From the NCBI GenBank assembly GCA_963729715.1, contig CAVSPA010000007.1:32001-96000 (forward strand): a DNA stretch of 64,000 nucleotides, in the 5' to 3' direction. Positions within the stretch are counted from its first letter, which is position 1. The number at the start of each line of letters is the position of its first letter. A program made the position numbers and the translations under genes. The DNA is from an uncultured delta proteobacterium (GTDB taxonomy: Bacteria > Desulfobacterota > Syntrophia > Syntrophales > UBA2185). Positions 4,658 through 46,680 of the stretch are shown here, piece after piece. Below the pieces are notes generated by a model. It saw only the letters and a program-made list of their open reading frames with translations. It was not told where the DNA came from and did no database searches.

Positions 4658-4966
4658 CTATAATTTTATTTCAACGTCGACGCCCGCAGACAGGTCCAAT
4701 TTCATCAGCGCATCTACAGTAGATTGCGTCGGCTCAATAATATCAATGAGTCTCTTGTGTGTCCTGATCTCAAATTGCTCCCTTGATTTCTTGTCTACGT
4801 GAGGAGATCGATTGACGCAAAATTTGTTGATTTCCGTGGGGAGGGGTATGGGACCAGCCACACGGGCTCCCGTCCTTTTTGCCGTCTCAACAATATCTTC
4901 GACAGACCTGTCAAGGAGTTTATAATCATATGCCTTGAGGCGGATTCTTATTCTCTGATCTTTCAT
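4658..4966 (-). CDS. rpsJ: 30S ribosomal protein S10
   Basis: [22 protein letters not shown]. Confidence 0.99.
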
Positions 4967-4992: not shown

Positions 4993-6186
4993 CTATTCAA
5001 TTATCTTACTGACAACACCGGCGCCGACAGTTCGACCGCCTTCCCTGATGGCGAACCTGAGCTGTTCTTCCATGGCGATGGGGGTGATCAAATCTACTTC
5101 AACTTCGATGTTGTCACCAGGCATCACCATCTCGACACCTTCAGGCAGCGTACAGATCCCTGTGACATCCGTGGTTCTGAAATAGAACTGTGGACGGTAG
5201 CCGGGAAAGAAGGGCGTATGCCTTCCGCCTTCCTCTTTGGTCAGAACGTAGACTGCAGCTTTAAATTTCGTATGGGGCGTAATTGATCCCGGTTTTGCCA
5301 CAACTTGGCCTCTTTCAACTTCTTCTCGTTTGGTGCCTCTTAAGAGAACACCGATATCATCGCCCGCCCTGCCCTCATCAAGGGTCTTGCGAAACATCTC
5401 CACACCCGTACATACTGTCTTGAACGTAGGTCTGAAACCGACTATTTCCACTTCATCTCCCGTTCTGATGATACCTCTTTCCGCCCTGCCGGTAACCACG
5501 GTCCCACGGCCCGATATGGAGAACACATCACCAATAGGCATGAGGAAAGGCTTATCCAAATCGCGCGTAGGCTCCGGAATATAGGTATCGACGGCATCCA
5601 TCAACTCCCAGATAGACTTTGCATCAGGCGAATCAGGATCATCAGTCTCCAGAGCCTTCAGGGCTGACCCTCTGATTATGGGAACTTCATCTCCGGGAAA
5701 TTCATACTGTGTCAAGAGCTCCCGCAATTCAAGCTCTACGAGATCCAAGAGTTCCGGGTCATCTACAAGGTCGATCTTGTTCAAATAGACAACGATATAG
5801 GGAACCCGAACCTGTCTTGCAAGGAGGATGTGCTCTCTTGTCTGAGGCATGGGACCATCTGAAGCAGCCACCACCAGGATCGTTCCGTCCATGTGAGCTG
5901 CACCTGATATCATGTTCTTTATATAGTCCGCGTGGCCAGGGCAATCTACGTGGGCATAATGTCTCTTCGCTGTCTCATATTCCACGTGCGCAACGTTAAT
6001 GGTAACTCCCCTTTCTTTTTCCTCTGGTGCATTGTCTATGGAATCAAAGGGTCTGAATTCGGCCAATCCTTTTTTCTGCAAGTGTTTTGTAATTGCCGCC
6101 GTCAGGGTAGTCTTACCATGATCTACGTGCCCAATGGTGCCAATATTCACATGCGGTTTCGTCCTCTCAAATTTCTTCTTAGCCAT
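4993..6186 (-). CDS. tuf: Elongation factor Tu
   Basis: [29 protein letters not shown] 8 nt before the ATG at 6186. Confidence 0.99.
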
Positions 6187-6236: not shown

Positions 6237-8324
6237 TTATGCTTCATCGATTGTCTTTAGTCTGTCAATGACCAGCTTCGCCTGACTTTCTGACACTGCA
6301 TGGTAATTAAGAAAACGCATTGTAAAAGTTGCTCTTCCCTGAGTTTTTGATCTAAGATCAGTAGCATATCCGAACATTTCTGCCAGAGGAACCTCGGCAT
6401 TAATTGCCTCCAAAGAAGGCCTTGACTCAATACTCACTATTTTCCCCCGTCTCGAAGTGAGATTTCCAATAACATCACCCATATATTCTTTGGGGACTAT
6501 GACTTCCACAGACATTATTGGCTCCATCAAGACGGGGTGAGCTCTTCTTGCCCCGCTCTTGAATGCCATGGAGGCCGCTATCTTAAATGCCATTTCGGAA
6601 GAATCCACGTCGTGAAAAGAGCCATCCACGGCACTGACAATGACATCTACCACGGGAAAGCCTGCCAGAACACCCTCCTGTGTAGCCTCGGAGACGCCCC
6701 TTGCCACTGCCGGAATATACTCGCCGGGAATAACCCCGCCGACAATCTTATTCCTGAATTCAAATCCTCGACCTGGCTCATTAGGTTCAATCTCCAGCCA
6801 CACGTGACCATACTGTCCTCTGCCGCCGGACTGTTTAACAAACTTGCCTTCAGATCTGATTCTTTTTCTGATAGTCTCCTTGTAAGCCACCTGCGGATCA
6901 CCGATGTTGGCGCCTAATCCAAATTCTCTCGATAGTCGGTCGACGATAATTTCTAAATGCAACTCTCCCATCCCCGAGATTAAGGTTTGACCCGTATCTT
7001 TGTCGACCTTAACCCTGAAGGAAGGGTCTTCACGGGAGATCTTTCTGAGAGCCGTATCCAGTTTTTCCTCATCCGCCTTCGTTTTTGGCTCTATGGCTAT
7101 GGCAATAACGGGATCGGGAAACTCCAGAGTCTCCAATGCAAGAGGATGTTCCGTATCACAAAGAGTATCGCCTGTAGTCGTCAGGTTAAGACCCACGGCG
7201 GCAGCTATGTCACCAGTGCGTACTTCTTTGATCTCCTCCCTCTTATTGGCATGCATTTTTAGCAAGCGGCCGATGCGCTCCTTCTTTCCTTTGGACACAT
7301 TATATACATAGGAACCGGCAGAGAGTACACCTGAGTATACCCTGAAATAGGTCAACTGACCGACATAGGGATCAGTCACAATCTTAAATGCCAACGCTGA
7401 AAAAGCTTCATCATCGTCCGGCATTCTTTCTATCTTCTCCCCCTTCCTGCCAATGCCGATAACCGGAGGCATGTCCAGCGGAGAAGGAAGGTAATCGATG
7501 ACTGCATCCAAGAGAGGTTGAACACCTTTATTCTTGAAGGCAGAGCCGCACAATACCGGCGTCGCTTTCAAGGATAGTGTCGCCTTCCTCAAGGCGCTTA
7601 TAATCTCTTCTTGTGAAAGAGCTTCTTCATTGAGATATTTCTTCATCAGGTTCTCATCGTGATCGGAAAGAAACTCTATGAGCTTCTCTCGCTCCCGACG
7701 AGAGGCATCAAGAAGATCAGGCGGAATCTCACTCACGCTGAACTTAGCCCCCAGGGAATATTCATCGTAAATGATCGCCTTCATACGTATAAGATCGATT
7801 ACTCCCCGGAAGAATTCTTCCTTGCCGATGGGCATCTGAACGGGTATCGGATGCGCCCCGAGCCTGTCGCGGATCGCGGCAACAACCTTCTCAAAATCGG
7901 CCCCTACCCTATCCATCTTATTGACAAAGATAACTCGCGGGACGCGGTACTTATCCGCTTGACCCCAAACTACCTCGGACTGGGGTTCCACGCCTCCCAC
8001 TGCGCAGAAAAGGGCAACGGCACCGTCTAAAATTCTCAAAGATCTTTCCACTTCTATGGTGAAGTCAACATGGCCGGGCGTATCGATGAGGTTGATGCGG
8101 TGGTCGCTCCACGTGCATGTAGTAGCCGCAGCCGTGATGGTTATACCCCGCTCCTGCTCCTGCTCCATCCAATCCATGGTGGCCGTTCCTTCATCGACCT
8201 CACCCATCTTGTAGGAGCCGTGAGTATAATAAAGGATCCGTTCGGTTGTTGTCGTCTTGCCGGCATCAATGTGCGCCATAATGCCGATATTGCGAAGACT
8301 CTGTAAAGGAACAATGCGTGCCAA
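6237..8324 (-). CDS. fusA: Elongation factor G (TTG start)
   Basis: [39 protein letters not shown]; lies in the str operon. Confidence 0.98.
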
Positions 8325-21150: not shown

Positions 21151-21227
21151 TGGCAGGCCAGGAGGGACTTGAACCCCCAGCATCCGGATTTGGAGTCCGG
21201 CGCTCTATCCATTAGAGCTACTGGCCT
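21151..21227 (-). tRNA. tRNA-Trp(CCA)
   Basis: AGGCCAGTAGCTCTAATGGATAGAGCGCCGGACTCCAAATCCGGATGCTGGGGGTTCAAGTCCCTCCTGGCCTGCCA; cloverleaf with CCA end. Confidence 0.97.
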
Positions 21228-21262
21228 GTTCCTTCTGCTGCATATTCCCTGATAAAGGAAAT

Positions 21263-21412
21263 CTACTTAGTTTCCCTGTGAAGCTTATGAGATCGACAGA
21301 ATTTACAATACTTCATTAACTCAAGCCGATTCTGCATGGTTCGCTTATTCTTCGTCGTTGTATAATTTCTCTGCTTACAATCTGTACAGGCCAAGGTAAT
21401 AATATTTCTCAT
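21263..21412 (-). CDS. rpmG: 50S ribosomal protein L33 (Zn-ribbon, C+ form; absent from the ORF track)
   Basis: Read by hand: [49 protein letters not shown]. Confidence 0.97.
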
Positions 21413-21434
21413 AATTAACCTACTTTTACCGTAA

Positions 21435-21510
21435 TGGAGCCCACGACCAGGATTGAACTGGTGACCTCATCCTTACCAAGGATGTGCTCTACCGACTGAG
21501 CTACGTGGGC
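21435..21510 (-). tRNA. tRNA-Thr(GGT)
   Basis: GCCCACGTAGCTCAGTCGGTAGAGCACATCCTTGGTAAGGATG...TGGGCTCCA. Confidence 0.97.
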
Positions 21511-21610
21511 TTATGAATTCATCAAAAGTACTTCTTCTTCCATGCACCCCATATAATCAGCAAATCGAAACACATCTCTAAAAAAGTTTAGCAATATTAA
21601 AGATATAATA

Positions 21611-21686
21611 TGGAGCGGGAAACGGGATTCGAACCCGCGACCCTCAGCTTGGAAGGCTGACGCTCTAGCCCCTGAGCTATTCCCGC
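21611..21686 (-). tRNA. tRNA-Gly(TCC)
   Basis: GCGGGAATAGCTCAG...TCAGCCTTCCAAGCTGA...TTCCCGCTCCA. Confidence 0.97.
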
Positions 21687-21750
21687 TCTTAAAAGACAGT
21701 GCACCCTGAGGTCCATCCCGCAAAAGTTACTGTCCAATTCATTTCCCTGA

Positions 21751-21832
<82 letters not shown>

Positions 21833-21850
21833 AGTTACATCACCAAAAGC

Positions 21851-21926
21851 TGGAGCTGGCGATGGGACTCGAACCCGCAACCTGCTGATTACAAATCAGC
21901 TGCTCTACCTGTTGAGCTACGCCAGC
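21851..21926 (-). tRNA. tRNA-Thr(TGT)
   Basis: GCTGGCGTAGCTCAACAGGTAGAGCAGCTGATTTGTAATCAGC...GCCAGCTCCA. Confidence 0.97.
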
Positions 21927-24122: not shown

Positions 24123-26432
24123 CTATTTTAATCTCCATGTTACTCCGTCTGCTGTGTCGGAGATCTCAATTCCCATCGCAAGAAGCTTCTTCCTGATATC
24201 ATCAGAAGCCTTCCAATCACCGATTCTTCTCGCGCGTGCTCTCTCTTCGAGAAGACGAAGCGCATCATCGCTCAATGTCTCTTCCTCAAAATTCATGACC
24301 CCGAGAACGGCATCAATCCTCTTTAGGACATCGAGTACATTGTCCCTTTCCCTTTTACTCAACTGCCCGAGAGAGAGTGGAATACTGACCTTCCCTATAA
24401 ATTCAAAAAGAGAGGCCATTGTATCGGATATGTTGAAATCATCATCCATGGTATCGGAGAATCTCTGTTTGATATCATAGACAAGTTGATCAGCGTCCGG
24501 GTATCCTTCACCTGGAGTATAACGAATCAGGCGCTGAATAAATCTATCCAACTTCTTGACCGTATTTCTCGCCGTCTCTAAGGCACCGGCGGAAAAATTT
24601 AGAGGCTTACGGTAGTGGGTGCCGAGCAGAAAAAACCTGATTTGTCTGCCTCCATATCCCATTGTCTCGAGATCTTCTATGGTCTTGACGTTGTTTAAAG
24701 AGCGGGACATTTTCTTGCCGTCCACCATGACCAGTTCCGTATTGATCCAGTAGTTGGCCATCCGTTTGCCGGTTGCAGCTCTCCCTATGGCCATGACATT
24801 TTCACAGTGCGGAAAGATGACATCGGCTCCGCTCGCATGAATATCAATATTGTCCGCCAGATATTTAAGTGAAATTGCTGCACACTCAAGGTGCCAGCTG
24901 GGCCTCACGTTCCCCCAGCGGGTCTTGAAGTAAATCCCCCTTTTCAATTCATTTAGGGAAGACCTTTTCAGAAGAGTAAAATCCACGGGGCTGTCTTTTT
25001 CATAGTCATCAGATTCAATCGTCTTGCCGGGTTTCACCTTTTTCAGGTCAATGTTGGACAGACGACCATAATCGTCTATTTTTGATATGTCAAAGTAGAC
25101 GGACCTCAATTTTTCGTAGGCGTGGCCCCTCGCCACGAGTTTTTCAACCAGGTTCACCATGGCATCGACATTTTCGCTAGCCCGGGGATAGACCTTCTCT
25201 TGTTTGATATTCAAATTTTTTATGTCGCTGAGGAACCTGCTTGTGCATCTTTCCGTATACGTAGCCAAGTCCATGCTTGCGCGCTCGGCTTCCTTAATGG
25301 ATCTGTCGTTCAAATCAATTATGTTCATAATGTGTCTAACTTTAAAGCCTTTAAAGTCGAGGTAGCGTAGGATCAGATCGGAAACGACAAAACGCCGATA
25401 GTTGCCTACGTGGGGAACTTCATGGACAGTAGGCCCGCAAGAGTGCATCAGAACTTCTTCGGTATTGATTGGTTTGAAGAACTCCTTCTCTCTCGTCGAC
25501 GTGTTGTAGAGACGTAGGGTAGATTGCTTCTTATCGGCAAAGAGTTCCGTACTCAGATACCTCTCTCCGCCGTCAGGAAAAATCACAACAATGAGCCCAT
25601 CTTCCATTTCTCTTGCCTTCTGCATAGCTACATACATGGCAGCTCCTGAACTCATTCCTACAAAAAGACCTTCCTCCCCGGCCAACCTCCGTGCGGTTTC
25701 AAATGCATCTTCGTCGAGGATATTTATTTTCTCATCCAGCCGGTTCTTGTCATAAATGCCCGGTCGGTAAGATTCCTTCATATTTTTCAGACCCTGGATT
25801 TTGTGCTGCAGGTATGGTTCAACACCCACTATCTTGATATCAGGATTATATTCCTTGAGTCGCCTCGAAATACCCATAGCAGTGCCCGTCGTCCCCAAGG
25901 TTGCCACCACCATTGTCACAGCCCCATCCGTCTGCTGCCATATTTCTTCACCAGTACCGTGATAATGAGCCAGCGTATTATCAGCATTATTAAACTGGTC
26001 GGTGCCAAAATATTTTCCTGGATCCTTGAGCATCATGTTATATGCCACTTCGATGGCGCCATCCGTGCCGAGAATTGCCGGGGTCAAGTATAACTCAGCT
26101 CCCATGGCCTTAAGAATTCTCTTTCTTTCCTCACTGGCGGATTCAGACATAGCCAGGCATAATCTGTATCCCTTGGCGGCAGCAATAAGTGCCAGACCGA
26201 TGCCGGTATTGCCGCTCGTTGCCTCGAGGATAATCTTATCGCCCGACAATTCCCCCCTCTTTTCCGCTTCGTTAACCATATAGAGGGCTATCCTGTCCTT
26301 TACGGAGCCTCCTGGGTTAAAATATTCGAGCTTTGCATATATTCTAACCTTCTTGCTCGGATTAAGCTTACGGATTTCCACGAGGGGCGTATTTCCAATA
26401 CTTTCTATAATGCTCTTATACATTCTTTTCAT
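24123..26432 (-). CDS. Cysteine synthase (CysK/CysM-like PLP domain, aa ~1-300) fused to a cysteinyl-tRNA synthetase-like domain (aa ~306-769)
   Basis: N-terminal: NTPL, NPGGSVKDR, EATSGNTG, GTTGT, SSGAA, DGGERYLST. C-terminal: LYNT, CGPTV, HVGN, WHLEC, KMSRS, HYRKPL, DDDFN and the anticodon domain. One continuous ORF. Confidence 0.92.
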   Translation of the reverse strand: MKRMYKSIIESIGNTPLVEIRKLNPSKKVRIYAKLEYFNPGGSVKDRIALYMVNEAEKRGELSGDKIILEATSGNTGIGLALIAAAKGYRLCLAMSESASEERKRILKAMGAELYLTPAILGTDGAIEVAYNMMLKDPGKYFGTDQFNNADNTLAHYHGTGEEIWQQTDGAVTMVVATLGTTGTAMGISRRLKEYNPDIKIVGVEPYLQHKIQGLKNMKESYRPGIYDKNRLDEKINILDEDAFETARRLAGEEGLFVGMSSGAAMYVAMQKAREMEDGLIVVIFPDGGERYLSTELFADKKQSTLRLYNTSTREKEFFKPINTEEVLMHSCGPTVHEVPHVGNYRRFVVSDLILRYLDFKGFKVRHIMNIIDLNDRSIKEAERASMDLATYTERCTSRFLSDIKNLNIKQEKVYPRASENVDAMVNLVEKLVARGHAYEKLRSVYFDISKIDDYGRLSNIDLKKVKPGKTIESDDYEKDSPVDFTLLKRSSLNELKRGIYFKTRWGNVRPSWHLECAAISLKYLADNIDIHASGADVIFPHCENVMAIGRAATGKRMANYWINTELVMVDGKKMSRSLNNVKTIEDLETMGYGGRQIRFFLLGTHYRKPLNFSAGALETARNTVKKLDRFIQRLIRYTPGEGYPDADQLVYDIKQRFSDTMDDDFNISDTMASLFEFIGKVSIPLSLGQLSKRERDNVLDVLKRIDAVLGVMNFEEETLSDDALRLLEERARARRIGDWKASDDIRKKLLAMGIEISDTADGVTWRLK

Positions 26433-31922: not shown

Positions 31923-32035
31923 TACGAACTCCTAATCAATACCAAAAAATAAATGTGGCTTTAATTTGGCTGCAAAATAGGGCTTACTCAAATCCTTAAT
32001 TAATAAATAGGCCATAACCTTCTTCGGACATGATC

Positions 32036-38185: not shown

Positions 38186-38439
38186 CATATTTCTTCATCG
38201 TTTCCTTCGCAATGCGCCGATCTATAAAAATCAGCGGTCTTAAGCAATTTTCTGATTTTTTGGTTGACAATATGTGCAAAATGACATATGTCGCTTTTGA
38301 CTGTTATGTGGCTCTTTATTTGTGCTTCGCGAGTCCCCACGTTTTTTTGTAAACACCATTTTTTCATTATGTCTTCTAAATCTCAAAAGCAGGCATAAGT
38401 CTTTTGAGAAAAATACGCACGATGTTGAAAGGAGGTAAC

Positions 38440-39627
38440 ATGAAAGGCTCCGATGATTACAGTAAAGCTGTAAGCAATCATTATAAACAACTGATGGAGT
38501 ACTGTAAAATCAATCAGGAACGTTTGGACAGGGAGCTGCCACCGCCACGGGAAGACTTAAGGGAACTCTTGGCGGAGCGCGGCGTGAGCAGGAGGGATTT
38601 CATCAAATGGACTTCTATCATGACTTCCGCATTGATGCTGCCTCCTATGTTCCGTCCCGCAGTGGCCACGGCGGCGGAAAATTTCAGTCGCCTCCCCATT
38701 GCGTGGCTCCACTTCGCCGAATGCACGGGCTGCAGCGAGGCCTTCCTCCGCACCTCATACCCGAATGTCGCCGACATAGTGTTGGAAACCATATCTCTCG
38801 AATACCATGAGACGGTGATGGCAGCCGCGGGCAACCAGGCCGAACAGAACCTGGAAAAATGCATGAAAGATTTCAAGAAGAAGTTTGTCTGTGTCATCGA
38901 AGGGGCGCTACCGAGGGGGCTCAATGGACAATATCTGAGACTGGGTCCGAAGGGCAAAACGGGCATCCAAATAGCCAAAGAGGTAACCCGCAGCGCAGCG
39001 GCGACGGTTTGTATCGGCGCCTGTGCCTGCTACGGAAATATTCAGGCTGCAAGGCCCAATCCCACGGATTCCGCGGGCATCAGCAAGGTCCTTGGCATCT
39101 CTACCGTAAATATCGCCGGCTGCCCGCCGAATGCCGTTAATTTTGTTGGGACACTTCTTCACTATCTCATGTTTGGCGGCATGCCTCCCCTTGATTCCAT
39201 AGGAAGACCAATCTGGGCTTACGGACAGAGAATCCATGATGTCTGCGAACGCAGGTCTCACTACGACGCCGGAGAGTTCGTGGAAGAGTGGGGTGATGAT
39301 GGAGCGAAAAAAGGCTGGTGCTTGTACAACCAAGGATGCAAAGGCCCTTACACCTTTGCAAATTGCGGCAAAGTGCGTTTCAACGATGGCGTCTCCTGGC
39401 CTGTCATGGCCGGTCATGGTTGCATAGGCTGCACGGAACCCGGATTCTGGGATACCATGGCCCCGCTCGAAAAACCTATCCAAGAAGCTTCCATCGGAGG
39501 CGGGGAACGTACCGCCGACAATATCGGTCTGGTGTTAACCGGCCTGGCCGCGGCGGGTGTCGCAGCACATGCGGTTGCCAGTGCAATCCGTCACAAGGGA
39601 AAAGATGAGGAGGAGAAACATGACTAA
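38440..39627 (+). CDS. hydA: [NiFe]-hydrogenase small subunit (Tat-exported, C-terminal membrane anchor)
   Basis: GGAGG SD; SRRDFIK Tat motif; ECTGCSE, GCPP, HDVC, WCL...GCKGP, HGCIGC; C-terminal TM helix ending AAH. Confidence 0.95.
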   Translation: MKGSDDYSKAVSNHYKQLMEYCKINQERLDRELPPPREDLRELLAERGVSRRDFIKWTSIMTSALMLPPMFRPAVATAAENFSRLPIAWLHFAECTGCSEAFLRTSYPNVADIVLETISLEYHETVMAAAGNQAEQNLEKCMKDFKKKFVCVIEGALPRGLNGQYLRLGPKGKTGIQIAKEVTRSAAATVCIGACACYGNIQAARPNPTDSAGISKVLGISTVNIAGCPPNAVNFVGTLLHYLMFGGMPPLDSIGRPIWAYGQRIHDVCERRSHYDAGEFVEEWGDDGAKKGWCLYNQGCKGPYTFANCGKVRFNDGVSWPVMAGHGCIGCTEPGFWDTMAPLEKPIQEASIGGGERTADNIGLVLTGLAAAGVAAHAVASAIRHKGKDEEEKHD

Positions 39628-41296
39628 GAGAATCATTGTAGATCCCATCACCAGGATTGAAGGACATTTGAGAATAGAGTGCGAAGTAGATGACGGTAAC
39701 GTAATCAGGGACGCCTGGAGCACCATTACCCTGTGGCGCGGCATCGAGACAATACTTAAAGGACGGGACCCCCGGGATGCGGGACTTATTGTTCAGAGAT
39801 TCTGTGGAGTCTGCACCTATGTCCATTATGAGGCAAGCACCATGGCCTGCGAAGATGCATTCGGCATCAAGCCGCCCCCCAATGCCCGGATTATCAGAAA
39901 TTTAATTCAAGGATGCTGGTTTCTCGGCGATCACATCATGCATTTCTATCATCTGCATGGACTCGACTGGGTAGACATTGTGAGCGCCCTTTCCGCAGAC
40001 CCGAAGAAAGCGGTCGAGCTCGCCAAGAGCTACTGTCCCGATCCCTACAACTGCTCGGAAACGCATTACAAGGCCGTTCAGCAGAGACTTACAAAGTTTG
40101 TGAAATCGGGCCGCCTCGGACCTTTTGCGAACGCATACTGGGGAAATCCTTCCTACAAGCTTCCACCGGAGGCTAACCTGGTCATTGTCTCTCACTATCT
40201 GGATGCCCTTCAGGTATCCAAAGTAGCGGCACAGATGCAGACCATCTTCGGCGGAAAGAACCCCCATCCCCAATCCCTGGTGGTTGGTGGCGTGACATGC
40301 GTTATGGATGCTCTGGATGCGAACCGCCTCGGCCAGTATCTTTTCCGTCTGAAGGAATTGCAGAACTTCATTGAGACTGCCTACCTCCCCGACGTACTGC
40401 TCGCAGCGGCCTATTACAAAGGCGAAGGCGCGGCCGGAATCGGAGGAGGCGTGAAGAATTATTTGAGCTACGGCGGTTTCCCTCTTGACGACGATATGAA
40501 TACCTTCCTCTTCCCCAGGGGAGTCGTAAAGAACAGAGACATTGCAAAGCCCCTGAAGCTCGACGAGGAGAAGATAACGGAAGAAGTAACCCATGCCTGG
40601 TATAAGGGCACGGAGCCCCAACATCCCTTTAAGGGAACGACAGATCCGGACTATACAGGCTACGATGCCAACGGCAATGTTAAGGGAGGTGAAAAATATT
40701 CTTGGTGCAAGGCGCCAAGATATGACGGGCAGCCCCATGAAGTAGGCCCCCTTGCGCGCATGCTTGTCGGTTATGCCGTGGGGAACGAGAAAATCAAAGC
40801 CCTCGTTGATTCAACGCTCAAGGCAACGGGCATCCCCGTGTCGGCCCTCTTCTCCACCCTCGGAAGGACAGCGGCACGCTGCATAGAAACCAAATATGTA
40901 GCCGACCACATCGAGGGATGGGTCGGTGAACTCATCGCCAATATCAAGAAGGGGGATACACGGACCTGGACGCGTTGCGATGTCCCGAGCAAGCCTGCAC
41001 AGGGTCGCGGCATGACGGAACCGCCGAGAGGAGCGCTAGGCCACTGGATAAGAATTGAGAACAAGGTGATTGCAAATTATCAGGCCGTAGTCCCCTCCAC
41101 ATGGAATTGTTCCCCGAGGGACAAGGCGGGGAAACGAGGCCCCTATGAGGAATCACTCATTGGGACGAAACTCGCCAAAGTGGACCAGCCTCTCGAGATC
41201 CTGAGAACCATTCATTCCTTTGATCCCTGTATGGCCTGCGCGGTTCACATTGTCGATCCCAAGACCAATGAAATCAGGAAATTCAGGGTCGCCTAA
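39620..41296 (+). CDS. hydB: [NiFe]-hydrogenase large subunit, group 1b
   Basis: DPITRIEGH, L1 motif RFCGVCTYVH, L2 motif FDPCMACAVH plus cleavable tail; AGGAG SD before the ATG at 39620. Confidence 0.96.
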   Translation: MTKRIIVDPITRIEGHLRIECEVDDGNVIRDAWSTITLWRGIETILKGRDPRDAGLIVQRFCGVCTYVHYEASTMACEDAFGIKPPPNARIIRNLIQGCWFLGDHIMHFYHLHGLDWVDIVSALSADPKKAVELAKSYCPDPYNCSETHYKAVQQRLTKFVKSGRLGPFANAYWGNPSYKLPPEANLVIVSHYLDALQVSKVAAQMQTIFGGKNPHPQSLVVGGVTCVMDALDANRLGQYLFRLKELQNFIETAYLPDVLLAAAYYKGEGAAGIGGGVKNYLSYGGFPLDDDMNTFLFPRGVVKNRDIAKPLKLDEEKITEEVTHAWYKGTEPQHPFKGTTDPDYTGYDANGNVKGGEKYSWCKAPRYDGQPHEVGPLARMLVGYAVGNEKIKALVDSTLKATGIPVSALFSTLGRTAARCIETKYVADHIEGWVGELIANIKKGDTRTWTRCDVPSKPAQGRGMTEPPRGALGHWIRIENKVIANYQAVVPSTWNCSPRDKAGKRGPYEESLIGTKLAKVDQPLEILRTIHSFDPCMACAVHIVDPKTNEIRKFRVA

Positions 41297-43831: not shown

Positions 43832-44175
43832 AGTGTCCTGGAAATCTTCTTCTCAGAAAGATCCCAGCAAAAAGAAAAACTCGGGGCATATACCTACTCG
43901 CCCATTTCGTCTAATTAATTTCCCATCTGAAAACCTAAACTGATCAAATTCATGAATTGATACACCAATATTTAATAAAAATAATTTGTATTACGTTGGC
44001 GCAGGCAGGAATAATCCGGTATCCGTAGCTTAGTGACATATATGCTAAGATAGTGAAGAGGAATCTATTGAAGAAAAGATGCAAGCTTGACCTCAAGGGG
44101 CATTTATGAGAAAAAGCAATGTCCTTTGCTCCCATAAATATGCGCATTTCTCGGAAAATATTTGCAGTGTTCATC

Positions 44176-46680
44176 ATGAAAAAAGATTATTCAATAGAGA
44201 TGTGTAAGACTCTCGAAACTGAATACAACGGCCTTGGTTTGCAGCGGCCTTTAGCTGTAAAACGCTACGACGTCGGGGACATCGTGGAATATGACGCGAG
44301 CGCGGTGGCGCCTGATACACCCGATAAGACATCCCGCGTTCGAGTACAGATACAACAATTTATCGGCGGCGGATTTGCTGGTCAGGTTTACAAAGTGAAG
44401 GTTCTCGGCATCGAACCGGATACGCTGCCGGGATTGCAGGTTGATAGTTCTTATGCGTTGAAGATCCTGATTCCGCCATCGGGAGCGGCGCGCTTTTTCA
44501 GAAACCTGCTCTACTGGATCGGTTTTCAGGGGCCTTTTCAATTGCAGTCAAATCCGGCTGCGGCAAGGGCCGGCGCTTTATGGCAGAAATTCATCCGCCG
44601 CGGCGCCAAGATCATGTTCGGTGATGAATCATGCGTTAAAGACATGTACGCCATCTTTGTCGATACCCAACTGGGAAGTTGCGGCGAGATTACCTCCTGG
44701 GTCGAAGGCCGCACCTGGCAGCTTGAAGTCGACGATCACATGGAGCTTTTGAGCAGATGGAAGAAAGGGGAAACTATTCCCCCTGGATGCCTCGGCTCTC
44801 CGGAATATAGAACAAAGAAACAATTCATGGCGGATATTGTCAGACTGCTCCACGATATGGGCGCTTATGAATTTGCCCGCCAGTATGAATGGTCCACCTG
44901 CAAGAGTCAACCGAACTGTTTTAAGTTGGATTCAACCGACGACGACCCTTATACCGGTCTTGTCGCCATGGATTTCCGCGCTGGCCTCGCTCTGCTTCCC
45001 TTCGGGCCGATGAGCCCCGGCGATTTTTCACTGATATGGAGAGGGGTTCGCAGAGGGTCTCTCGTACAGTTCGACAGGGGAGACCTCAAAAAACTCGAAG
45101 CATTTGTGCTCGCTCATAAGAATGAATTTGCAGACATGCTCGGCATGCTTGAGGAGCTGAAAGCCGCGGAAGAAATCTATCGCAATTCGGTTCCCGATGT
45201 TACCCACAATCATCTCAAACTTCTTTACAGCGGAAAGCTCTGGTCTACCATTTTTTCCAGCGCGATTGTCGGGTGGAGAATTAAAAATATAATCGACGCT
45301 CCGACACAGGAACGATTCCAGAAACGCAAAATCTCTGCCCTCCCTTTCTCCCTTCTGGGCTTAATACCATTCTTAGGCGGTATGCTGCGAAAGGCCTGGG
45401 GGCACGCCGAATGGCGGGCGCATTATAAGAAATGCTTGAACAGCATGGAATACCTTCTTAAAACGCTTCGCGGCAAAAGGCTGGAGCGTGTGATGTCATG
45501 GTGTCGGAGCGGCAGGATAGCGGAAGAGTCTGCGCCGATGCTTGCTCATTCCTTGGGGCTGTTTCTCCTTCATCTGCCGCTGTCGATTCTTCCCGCAGGA
45601 CTATATAAGTTCCTGACAAGCTGGAAATATGCAAAGGAGAAATTGGCCTTTATATTCGTGCGGCCCGTCCAGCTCTATTTTAATGCCGAGATGCGGGAGG
45701 AATGGCTGGCCGACATGGTGGAGCTCGGGAAGAAGAAGCGCATCATAAGCGCGAGCGACGCGGATGAGATAATCAAGACCATTAAAGAACCTTTTATTCA
45801 GAAATACCTCAAGAGTCTCGCTGTTCACATCTGTTTGATGCCGACCACGCATGTGGTTGCCACGGCGCTTGCGATCTACTTCATATGGACGCATCCCGAA
45901 ATGCCCCGCGCACAGGCCTGGGCGATAGGATTGGGGATTATCGCCTTTTTCCAGCTCATACCCATATCACCCGGATCGCTCGCGCGGGGGCTCTATGTGC
46001 TTTTCCTGGTTATAAAAGAAAGAAATTTCAAGGACTACAGCATCGCTTTGTTTTTAGCGTTCTTCAAATATGTCGGGTACCTCGCCTTCCCTATACAGAT
46101 GACCTATCGGTACCCCACGCTGGCGCGGTTTATGGCGGGACACTGGGCCACGGAATCCGTGCATGTCGTGCCGGTATTTGGAGAGAGCGGCGCTCTTCTT
46201 GAGCACGGCGTCTTCTGCCTTTTCTACAATTGGCCTCTGACTATTCGCAGGCACATGGATTTACGCGCGCAGAAGAGAGCACTGATGAGACCGCGCTACT
46301 GGCACGCGGCAGCCCTGGGGGTTGGCGCTGCCGGAGTCTTGTTTGGAACCGATACGATGTATTTTAAGTATGCCGGGGTTATCCCGGATCTGAGACACAT
46401 CTGGTGGCTCATGGCCGCACTCCCGTTAATCGGAGGCATTATGGTCAGCAACGGATGCGGGGGCGCTCCGATGATGAGGCGGATTGTAGCGGCTGCGGTC
46501 TTCGGTATCTTTACGAGTCTTATCTATATGATCATTGCGACCGCTTTCGGTTTTCATCATTATGCAAATATTTTCCAACTCGGCATGGCATGCTTATGGA
46601 GACTATTCGTGTTCGGCCTCTTGGCAAGCATAGGCGCCATGGCAATGGAGTTTAAGCTGGAAAAATCTGACGGATATTAA
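44176..46680 (+). CDS. Uncharacterised large membrane protein with an N-terminal protein-kinase-like domain
   Basis: Long ORF (ATG at 44176 preferred); IGGGFAGQVY, YALK, LLHDMG, QPN, VAMDF motifs; several C-terminal hydrophobic helices. Confidence 0.8.
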   Translation: MKKDYSIEMCKTLETEYNGLGLQRPLAVKRYDVGDIVEYDASAVAPDTPDKTSRVRVQIQQFIGGGFAGQVYKVKVLGIEPDTLPGLQVDSSYALKILIPPSGAARFFRNLLYWIGFQGPFQLQSNPAAARAGALWQKFIRRGAKIMFGDESCVKDMYAIFVDTQLGSCGEITSWVEGRTWQLEVDDHMELLSRWKKGETIPPGCLGSPEYRTKKQFMADIVRLLHDMGAYEFARQYEWSTCKSQPNCFKLDSTDDDPYTGLVAMDFRAGLALLPFGPMSPGDFSLIWRGVRRGSLVQFDRGDLKKLEAFVLAHKNEFADMLGMLEELKAAEEIYRNSVPDVTHNHLKLLYSGKLWSTIFSSAIVGWRIKNIIDAPTQERFQKRKISALPFSLLGLIPFLGGMLRKAWGHAEWRAHYKKCLNSMEYLLKTLRGKRLERVMSWCRSGRIAEESAPMLAHSLGLFLLHLPLSILPAGLYKFLTSWKYAKEKLAFIFVRPVQLYFNAEMREEWLADMVELGKKKRIISASDADEIIKTIKEPFIQKYLKSLAVHICLMPTTHVVATALAIYFIWTHPEMPRAQAWAIGLGIIAFFQLIPISPGSLARGLYVLFLVIKERNFKDYSIALFLAFFKYVGYLAFPIQMTYRYPTLARFMAGHWATESVHVVPVFGESGALLEHGVFCLFYNWPLTIRRHMDLRAQKRALMRPRYWHAAALGVGAAGVLFGTDTMYFKYAGVIPDLRHIWWLMAALPLIGGIMVSNGCGGAPMMRRIVAAAVFGIFTSLIYMIIATAFGFHHYANIFQLGMACLWRLFVFGLLASIGAMAMEFKLEKSDGY

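Follow-up and report, generated by a model that had tools for sequence, protein, structure and literature searches.

In published structures of bacterial elongation factor Tu (EF-Tu), Gln98 forms hydrogen bonds with Glu226 and Asn285 (Thermus numbering), and the bottom of the amino acid pocket is described as consisting of His67, Glu226, Asp227, Phe229, Thr239, and Asn285 (Yanagisawa et al.). Positions 67, 98, 216, 217, and 274 were randomised by Haruna et al. (2014, PMC4150793) as 'the amino acid binding pocket'. Two acidic residues of it, Glu227 and Asp228 of Thermus in the numbering of Roy et al. (2007, PMC1904265), are reported there to be strictly conserved in bacterial factors and to lie 3.7 Å and 5.4 Å from the side chain, the equivalent of E. 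coli Glu215 being strictly conserved in 87 bacteria. Schrader and Uhlenbeck (2011, PMC3239215), who argue for universal recognition rules, found conservation above 99% across 247 bacteria at 13 of the 15 interface residues with thermodynamic importance. An invariant pocket underlies both the view that all bacteria share the same rules for balancing amino acid against tRNA body (Schrader and Uhlenbeck, 2011) and the view that Glu215 keeps mischarged Asp-tRNAAsn out (Roy et al., 2007). Here we describe the EF-Tu gene (tuf) in a stretch of 64,000 nucleotides (the window; positions 32,001 to 96,000 of contig CAVSPA010000007.1, assembly GCA_963729715.1) from an uncultured bacterium of the order Syntrophales. 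Judged by the bonds in the published canonical structures, this order has replaced a mutually bonded Gln97-Glu215-Asn273 triad (E. coli numbering) on the pocket floor by His-Gly-Asp.

The gene (window 4993..6186) encodes a protein of 397 amino acids (P0001) and is the only tuf of its genome. An earlier note on this DNA had placed it at these coordinates, which hold, with the correction that it is read from the minus strand. It starts with an ATG at 6186, 8 nt after a Shine-Dalgarno sequence (AAGGAGGT). The product matches the NCBIfam equivalog TIGR00485 with 726.8 bits (cut-off 522.4), its residues 1-397 lying on profile positions 1-394 of 394, and E. coli and Thermus EF-Tu chains match it at full length (E ~1e-199 to 1e-195). 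The three EF-Tu domains, PF00009 (GTP_EFTU), PF03144 (GTP_EFTU_D2), and PF03143 (GTP_EFTU_D3), are precomputed for P0002, which is 100% identical to P0001. The GTPase motifs G1 (GHVDHGKT), G3 (DCPGH), G4 (NKxD), and G5 (SAL) are all present in the translation, including GSALKAL.

The alignment with E. coli EF-Tu (1efc_A) pairs query residues 3-396 with chain residues 2-392, and the alignments to the two best PDB matches (6i8r_A and 6gfu_A) place a 3-residue insertion at query 186-188. From these end-points and this insertion, Ser94, His98, Gly219, and Asp277 of P0001 map to Thr93, Gln97, Glu215, and Asn273 of mature E. coli EF-Tu. His98 (CAC, 5893-5895) stands at the C-terminal end of the switch-II helix in domain 1, with Ser94 (TCA, 5905-5907) one helical turn before it. 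Gly219 (GGT, 5530-5532; Thermus Glu226/227) and Asp277 (GAT, 5356-5358; Thermus Asn285) are part of the pocket wall in domain 2; all four codons are on the minus strand. The earlier note had seen the three changed residues, with their codons checked, within the same three motifs and had given them the same E. coli numbers. It had also recognised them as pocket positions that are among those altered in engineered EF-Tus, which agrees with the description of EF-Sep and EF-Sel1 (Haruna et al., 2014). Since the side chains of Gln97, Glu215, and Asn273 bond each other, the three changes rewire a single network across the seam between domains 1 and 2. Thr93 is located four residues before position 97 on the switch-II stretch, and would face the same side of the helix as Gln97. 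The pocket residues His66, Asp216, Phe218, and Thr228 are unchanged in P0001. The 'universally conserved' pocket (His66, Gln97, Glu215, Asp216, Thr228, and Asn273), a reported property of the bacterial EF-Tu family and not a criterion for membership in it, is not kept whole, with Gln97, Glu215, and Asn273 turned into His, Gly, and Asp.

The His/Gly/Asp combination was found in all 45 Syntrophales genomes compared (G000, the genome of the window, to G040, plus G216, G275, G303, and G331), at 86-100% identity to P0001. In contrast, all 43 genomes from elsewhere in the phylum had Gln/Glu/Asn, at 77-84% identity; these were picked from the 167 out-of-order genomes that matched, with one taken for each top match listed. 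Counted by position over 101 distinct in-order and 43 outgroup sequences, residue 97 is His in 101/101 versus Gln in 43/43, residue 215 is Gly in 101/101 versus Glu in 43/43, and residue 273 is Asp in 101/101 versus Asn in 43/43. At position 93, Ser is present in 98 of the 101 (Thr in three) versus Thr in 43/43. When these 144 distinct sequences were placed in a FastTree phylogeny, the 101 His/Gly/Asp rows were separated from all others by a branch with support 100, and this held with the four trait columns removed. The stem branch of the carriers measures 0.067 changes per site, and the median root-to-tip distance inside the clade is 0.17. The triad has a single origin, in the common ancestor of Syntrophales. 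Two proposals of the earlier note, that these positions are normally near-invariant and that the three changes are coordinated, are thereby confirmed, the former by the outgroup and by published conservation, the latter by perfect co-occurrence and by the hydrogen bonds among the side chains in canonical EF-Tu.

The distribution was also followed with a degenerate DNA scan for P-[IV]-G-D-[VI]-[FY]...GRGTV in a collection of 185,579 species, with one genome per species. The scan gave at least 119 loci, which overlap the 45 order genomes and are not independent evidence. Among the matches listed, Asp273 was present in 119 of 119, and His97 in all 77 that cover position 97, with Ser93 in 74 and Thr93 in three. 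The titles of 118 of the 119 name Syntrophales, Syntrophaceae, Smithella, Syntrophus, or an unspecific delta-/proteobacterial metagenome-assembled genome (MAG). The odd title, an Actinomycetes MAG (L181), belongs to a frameshifted fragment at a contig end, whose motif around Asp273 matches in-order sequences; we take it to be misbinned. The combination was absent from the 150 most similar representatives at 50% identity (His98 in one, Gly219 in three, and Asp277 in two), which are mostly fragments, fusions, and divergent paralogues and give a poor frequency estimate. A search for protein homologues gave only relatives at 94% identity or more, whose source names agree with a placement of the organism in Syntrophales.

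Only eight positions distinguish the 101 distinct in-order from the 43 out-of-order sequences when at least 90% is required in each of the two groups: K51N, A63N, T93S, Q97H, M139L, E147D, E215G, and N273D. Thr93, Gln97, Glu215, and Asn273 are the sole diagnostic positions that are 100% invariant in the outgroup, and all four lie in the pocket or next to it. Of the eight, three coincide with pocket positions among the five randomised by Haruna et al. (hypergeometric P = 5e-5), and none is in domain 3. The changes are focused on the amino acid pocket, beyond chance.

We then asked what other factor of this kind the cell has. The genome of the window (3.76 Mb, 19 contigs, estimated 100% complete with 6.48% contamination) holds one tuf. 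The remaining EF-Tu-like matches are SelB and other translational GTPases; one, to the EF-Tu G domain, lies inside fusA (G000:C7:39899-40291). SelB is complete, with 388 bits against a cut-off of 242 (G000:C14:34902-36812; L002:649-2559, minus strand), and a tRNASec(UCA) gene is located at G000:C5:451864-451961; the organism uses selenocysteine. With SelB as the only other EF-Tu-like factor of this kind, there is no substitute in this genome for the sole tuf, which stands in the housekeeping context fusA-tuf-rpsJ of the str/S10 operon. P0001 is not a specialised SelB-like or EF-Pyl-like paralogue beside a canonical EF-Tu, since this genome has no second tuf; a canonical second copy, which the earlier note had considered as the possibly expressed one, is not there.

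A single tuf was found in all 41 order genomes searched (G000 and 40 relatives), with two exceptions. In G013 the gene is split across two contigs, and G019 (88% complete, 5% contamination) has a second, Gln/Glu/Asn-type tuf, 61-63% identical, on a 2.7-kb contig, which we take to be foreign. By a hand count of the table, about 73 of the 167 out-of-order phylum genomes with a match show at least two tuf genes. Many out-of-order genomes carry two identical copies about 16.3-16.8 kb apart (for example G282, G159, G307, G153, and G155; positions G282:C6:285152 and 301972, G159:C7:73167 and 89798). No second tuf is present at the corresponding tRNA-Thr(GGT)/rpmG site of the window, where only 22 nt separate a 49-aa open reading frame (ORF) from tRNA-Thr (21412-21435). 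Together with the single tuf across the order, this indicates that the order appears to have lost that copy.

The four codons were also seen in DNA assembled elsewhere. A DNA contig from another study spans 4993-6182 at ~96% identity with 45 differences, and contigs of two peat RNA libraries cover all four codons, although presence in an RNA library is no proof of transcription. The comparison with public runs was made on assembled contigs, of which X1 and X15 each cover parts of tuf only. Among the 40 differences listed (44 more are unlisted), only one is inside the four codons, a synonymous GAT to GAC change (5356 A>G).

Loss of Glu215 has to be seen against the way these bacteria charge tRNAAsn. 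Asparaginyl-tRNA synthetase (AsnRS, TIGR00457) was over the cut-off in 2 of the 41 order genomes (G038 and G022), with a split match below the cut-off in G013, and was not over it in the genome of the window. GatB was over the cut-off in 39 of the 41, the two without it being 85% and 88% complete, and glutaminyl-tRNA synthetase (GlnRS) in 35, the window's genome included. Since this genome has gatA adjoining gatB, a single aspartyl-tRNA synthetase (AspRS) of bacterial type, and no AsnRS over the cut-off, it must make Asn-tRNAAsn via Asp-tRNAAsn. This dependence makes the loss of Glu215 a problem that needs a solution. AsnRS was found in 59 of 151 sampled phylum genomes; being often missing elsewhere in the phylum, it does not set the clade apart, and the change is not accounted for by the Asn pathway. 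We considered whether direct asparaginylation had relaxed the constraint and rejected this, because AsnRS is over the cut-off in so few order genomes and not in that of the window.

Beside this pathway, a second, divergent gatB paralogue (481-516 bits) was seen in six order genomes, not including that of the window (G040:C20:316-5271; G017:C24:38446-43173; G025:C35:428-5132; G039:C15:38277-42978; G026:C153:8733-13453; G016:C138 and G016:C43). In five of the six, an ORF of 706-745 aa, whose N- and C-terminal parts resemble AsnRS/AspRS, is found within ~3 kb of it. The two may form an extra module for tRNA-dependent amidation.

On the tRNA side, the T-stem pairs 49-65 and 51-63 are reported to set the weak tRNAAsn and strong tRNAAsp bodies (Roy et al., 2007). 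In the genome of the window, the T-stem of tRNAAsp reads G49-U65, U50-A64, and G51-C63, with a predicted -11.0 kcal/mol that equals the bacterial mean, and that of tRNAAsn reads C49-G65, G50-C64, and U51-G63, with -9.1 kcal/mol versus a mean of -9.4. Affinities were calculated with the Schrader-Uhlenbeck T-stem model, outside of which 5 of the 48 tRNAs had a pair; the prediction for tRNASec is unreliable, as the parser assumes 7/5 acceptor/T-stem.

The best explanation, to which we give roughly even chances, is that the sole housekeeping EF-Tu of these bacteria has had its triad replaced as a unit, with compensation between His97 and Asp273 and with Asp273 as a relocated gate. In canonical EF-Tu-GTP, the side chains of Gln97, Glu215, and Asn273 close the domain 1-2 seam and form part of the floor of the aminoacyl pocket. 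In the Syntrophales ancestor these would have become His97, Gly215, and Asp273 as one unit, with Thr93 turned into Ser one helical turn earlier. A bond between His97 and Asp273 could then join the two domains in place of the old bonds, and the pocket carboxylate would have moved from 215 to 273 with the net charge kept. Gly215 would open one wall of the pocket, and Ser93 may make room for the imidazole ring. Being encoded by the sole tuf, the factor would still deliver all elongator aminoacyl-tRNAs.

Two sets of published mutants bear on this proposal. E. coli EF-Tu E215A, E215G, and E215S are described as having 'strongly reduced activity' in reconstituted translation, and N273A and N273S were also made, of which N273S seemed to hyperstabilise L-aminoacyl-tRNA (Achenbach 2015, PMC4499158). 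Since a single E215G is strongly impaired in E. coli, the change needs compensation, and N273D, Q97H, and T93S are the candidate compensators that would render an otherwise damaging E215G tolerable. Thermus E227A is reported to bind mischarged Asp-tRNAAsn, which the wild type, an Asp228 mutant, and E227Q do not (Roy et al., 2007). Because the Glu of Thermus at position 215 bars Asp-tRNAAsn and the bacteria described here need that intermediate, we propose Asp273 as the gate; it would repel Asp-tRNAAsn through its charge, acting together with the T-stem of tRNAAsn, which is unchanged and binds weakly.

To look for partial states of the triad, 241 million metagenome records were scanned for Glu215 with Asp273 at exact spacing. 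Fifteen loci were found, of which 13 are EF-Tu; L226 and L237 are not EF-Tu by tblastn. Ten (L224, L225, L227, L228, L230, L232, L233, L234, L235, and L238) have Thr, Gln, Glu, and Asp at 93, 97, 215, and 273, are 64-77% identical to P0001, and lie outside the Syntrophales clade; one further EF-Tu locus leaves position 97 uncovered. L229 (contig Ga0185299_10000111, 101306-102533; 61% identical to P0001) has Thr, Arg, Glu, and Asp, so that Glu215 is kept with Arg97 and Asp273, possibly a pair of changes that arose independently at this contact. Asp273 in scattered EF-Tus outside Syntrophales, and the Arg-Asp pair of L229, are independent hints that positions 97 and 273 are coupled. The last locus, L231 (contig ERZ1645192.47136, 1142-2369; ~4-fold coverage by its name), has Ser, His, Glu, and Asp. 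No basal intermediate was found among the 15 loci. Among the at least 119 Gly215 matches listed, none was without Asp273, nor without His97 where position 97 is covered, and this constant company fits, without proving, an order in which N273D and Q97H came before E215G.

Several observations weigh against the proposed compensation and gate. L231 is 98.9% identical in protein to a His/Gly/Asp sequence (L109) and is nested deep in the clade, yet it has Glu215. Its codon is GAA versus GGC in L109, two changes amid 98.3% nucleotide identity, and it looks like a reversal to Glu at a tip of the tree. Its existence means that Glu215 is tolerated on the new background and that Gly215 is not obligatory. 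The ten EF-Tus with Asp273 next to Gln97 and Glu215 likewise mean that Asp273 needs no partner change. The predicted T-stem affinities track the means of the bacterial classes (r = 0.54, 43 tRNAs) with no convincingly deviant class, the largest deviations being Pro-CGG (z = -2.5), Arg-CCU (-1.9), and Lys-UUU (-1.7). Such a canonical pattern fits an unchanged affinity hierarchy, and therefore a near-neutral rewiring; it argues against a large shift in that hierarchy, and against a gate moved onto the tRNA. For the altered aminoacyl-tRNA affinity profile that the earlier note had suggested, it thus speaks against a large effect. Nor is the tRNAAsn T-stem specific to the clade, as 4 of 4 order and 6 of 26 outgroup loci share it; these loci were the best matches to the tRNAAsn of the window's genome and are thus biased to similarity. 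Roy et al. (2007) concluded that rejection by Glu227 is steric, E227Q still rejecting Asp-tRNAAsn, and a purely electrostatic substitute may behave differently. Finally, both the His97-Asp273 bond and the relocated gate are inferences. Compensation shifted onto the tRNA bodies was considered separately and found no support, as no tRNA class is deviant and the tRNAAsn T-stem is common to outgroups.

The alternative that survives best, possible though doubtful in our judgement, is that one hydrogen-bond network was exchanged epistatically for another and became fixed, leaving the choice of aminoacyl-tRNAs bound essentially as it was, perhaps with the single tuf making this easier. Exclusion of Asp-tRNAAsn would then depend not on Asp273 but on the weak body of tRNAAsn and on channelling between AspRS and GatCAB. 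The canonical T-stem pattern, with a tRNAAsn T-stem shared with outgroups, is as expected from such a swap; the stem branch (0.067, versus the median root-to-tip of 0.17) is not unusually long, and both Asp273 alone and a Glu215 revertant occur in nature. The one tuf in the order genomes searched, versus at least two in about 73 of 167 out-of-order genomes, points the same way, since with a single copy there is no gene conversion from a second copy to oppose a change. If binding is unchanged, the triad still shows cleanly how a network can be rewired neutrally at a site that is supposed to be immutable. However, the three bonded sites are 100% invariant in 43 outgroup genomes, with Glu215 reported strict in 87 bacteria (Roy et al., 2007), and such invariance makes drift unlikely without a selective or compensatory order of changes. 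Single E215 mutants are reported as strongly impaired (Achenbach 2015), and E227A as measurably altered in specificity (Roy et al., 2007). In addition, His/Gly/Asp is held without exception in the order genomes down to 86% identity, indicating purifying selection.

A bolder extension of the preferred explanation is that Syntrophales have a second natural pocket design with a changed specificity rule, in which an electrostatic gate (Asp273, kept in place by His97) stands in for the steric one (Glu215), and in which the opened wall at Gly215 shifts the affinity ranking of esterified amino acids. We consider it unlikely that this is so and that, for example, bulky, D-, or other non-standard aminoacyl groups are better accepted. 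If it were true, the order would be an exception to the 'universal' scheme of thermodynamic compensation, and N273D, Q97H, and T93S would be ready-made compensators with which to rescue the E215 mutants of genetic-code engineering.

Quite improbable is an adaptation of the drug target, in which the pocket was reshaped by an inhibitor or toxin of the aminoacyl site (of the thiopeptide GE2270A/thiomuracin type or another) and the remaining changes compensate. Asn273 and Asp216, the latter adjoining position 215, are listed among the 12 strongest contacts of GE2270A (PMC8183687, citing Heffron and Jurnak 2000). This compound and aminoacyl-tRNA are competitors for the site. Ten of the 12 listed contacts are nevertheless unchanged in P0001, the two exceptions being N273D and V274I, and the contact list does not include Gln97 or Glu215. 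The classical thiopeptide resistance positions Gly257 and Gly275 are also unchanged (Gly261 and Gly279 of P0001). Furthermore, these thiopeptides act mainly on Gram-positive bacteria, whereas Syntrophales are diderm anaerobes, and we know of no thiopeptide producer or biosynthetic cluster from this habitat, although no search for one was made.

The window also encodes a fusion of cysteine synthase with cysteinyl-tRNA synthetase (CysRS), 769 aa long (24123-26432, minus strand), in which a cysM/cysK-like PALP domain (residues 8-298) precedes a complete CysRS (residues 306-767) with its catalytic domain and CysS anticodon-binding domain. The earlier note had suggested a link between the altered EF-Tu and this protein. 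There is very little chance that the pocket is tuned for an unusual aminoacyl-tRNA from the fusion or from another special pathway. The fusion is real, and full length in about 31 of the 41 order genomes. It is, however, also full length in 58 of 146 sampled out-of-order phylum genomes, and it stands beside a Gln/Glu/Asn EF-Tu in 11 out-of-order genomes (G182, G184, G144, G049, G159, G072, G176, G139, G150, G152, and G071). Conversely, it was not found fused in four order genomes with His/Gly/Asp (G022, G038, G033, and G034), each 100% complete. The genome of the window has a standalone CysRS as well (G000:C7:12753-14237), selenocysteine is served by SelB, and no tRNA with a CUA anticodon was found by Aragorn. 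Since the two distributions do not match, the suggested tie was rejected. A 405-aa CysRS/MshC-like gene is located at G000:C3:136257-137495.

An artefact, whether an assembly or binning error (as the earlier note had allowed for), a pseudogene, or a minor copy in a cell that expresses a canonical tuf, has a negligible probability in spite of the estimated contamination of 6.48%, since the ORF is intact in a fusA-tuf-rpsJ operon with a strong Shine-Dalgarno sequence, is the only tuf of a genome estimated as 100% complete, shares its residue set with 45/45 order genomes and 119/119 scan matches listed, including the complete isolate genome of Syntrophus buswellii DM-2 (L122) and Smithella sp. 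D17 (L168), and has its codons repeated, with one listed synonymous change only, in contigs from the other study and the RNA libraries.

The neighbourhood of tuf has the order of a str/S10 operon on the minus strand. Directly upstream is fusA (elongation factor G, EF-G; 695-aa ORF, 6237..8324), and directly downstream rpsJ (ribosomal protein S10; 102-aa ORF, 4658..4966). The translation of the former reads as EF-G, and the latter was named from sequence and position. The cluster 21151..21926, known from tRNA calls and ORFs, contains tRNA-Thr(TGT), Tyr, Gly, and Thr(GGT), then the 49-aa ORF (21263-21412), which is rpmG by position only, and then tRNA-Trp. After tRNA-Trp come ORFs (given as seven) that read as secE, nusG, rplK, rplA, rplJ, rplL, rpoB, rpoC, rpsL, and rpsG, followed by fusA, tuf, the 102-aa ORF, and a 210-aa ORF read as rplC. 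Names other than fusA and tuf rest on size, position, and translation, and the family-library scan was not applied to these ORFs or to fusA. Elsewhere in the window are a hydrogenase pair of NiFeSe type (38404-41296) and an 853-aa ORF (44119-46680, plus strand) in which no Pfam family was found at E <= 1e-5.

Some further features of the genome were noted. A 73-nt Aragorn 'tRNA-Ser(GCU)' at G000:C16:17367-17439 is without a long variable arm; U-U mismatches occur twice in its anticodon stem, and its T-stem contains a U-U pair. The same contig holds a duplicate of the tRNA-Val(CAC) on contig C1, the two genes being identical (G000:C1:5376-5450 and G000:C16:2039-2113). There are also two 511-aa class II aminoacyl-tRNA synthetase genes of identical score, like lysyl-tRNA synthetase by size (G000:C12:2684-3994 and G000:C15:4712-6022). 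These synthetase and tRNA-Val duplicates either reflect duplication of the regions concerned or belong to the contamination, estimated at 6.48%.

No published description of the variant was found in open-access full texts and bioRxiv, although older subscription papers on EF-Tu could mention it. We class it as a clade-wide natural exception, in a known protein, at a site held to be invariant. Its significance lies in that a whole order of cultivable, non-pathogenic syntrophs has replaced Glu215 and its two bond partners while still depending on the mischarged intermediate, which provides a natural test of how Asp-tRNAAsn is excluded. In it, moreover, three residues that touch each other in an essential protein have clearly changed in concert, and it is a source of candidate compensators for E215 variants, which are wanted for non-canonical amino acids yet cripple E. 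coli EF-Tu when alone.

Canonical bacterial EF-Tus (E. coli TufA/TufB, T. thermophilus, and T. aquaticus) are like P0001 in their three domains, GTPase motifs, and str operon, but have Gln97-Glu215-Asn273 and Thr93 where P0001 has His-Gly-Asp and Ser. The sporadic natural EF-Tus with Asn273 changed to Asp share Asp273, but keep Glu215 and, in all but L229, Gln97. Engineered E. coli E215G (Achenbach 2015, PMC4499158; Doi et al. 2007 as cited in PMC6386890) is the same substitution at the same site, made with the aim of a larger pocket. Such engineered single mutants are reported as strongly impaired in translation, whereas in the Syntrophales protein E215G comes together with N273D, Q97H, and T93S, and the cell has no other EF-Tu; N273D and Q97H are not among the engineered pocket mutants described in the passages on PMC4499158 and PMC6386890. 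Thermus thermophilus E227A has lost the same Glu side chain, and is described as a laboratory mutant that admits Asp-tRNAAsn (Roy et al., 2007). As Syntrophales lost this Glu while depending on Asp-tRNAAsn, a different safeguard must operate in them. The engineered EF-Sep and EF-Sel1 (Park 2011; Haruna 2014, PMC4150793) are, like the Syntrophales factor, both altered at 216 and 274, EF-Sel1 also at 98 (its reported substitutions are H67R, Q98W, E216N, D217K, and N274R). They are described as removing negative charge in order to accept anionic side chains, and as altering His67 and Asp217 as well. In the Syntrophales EF-Tu, in contrast, the net charge is kept, with Glu out and Asp in, and His66 and Asp216 are untouched.

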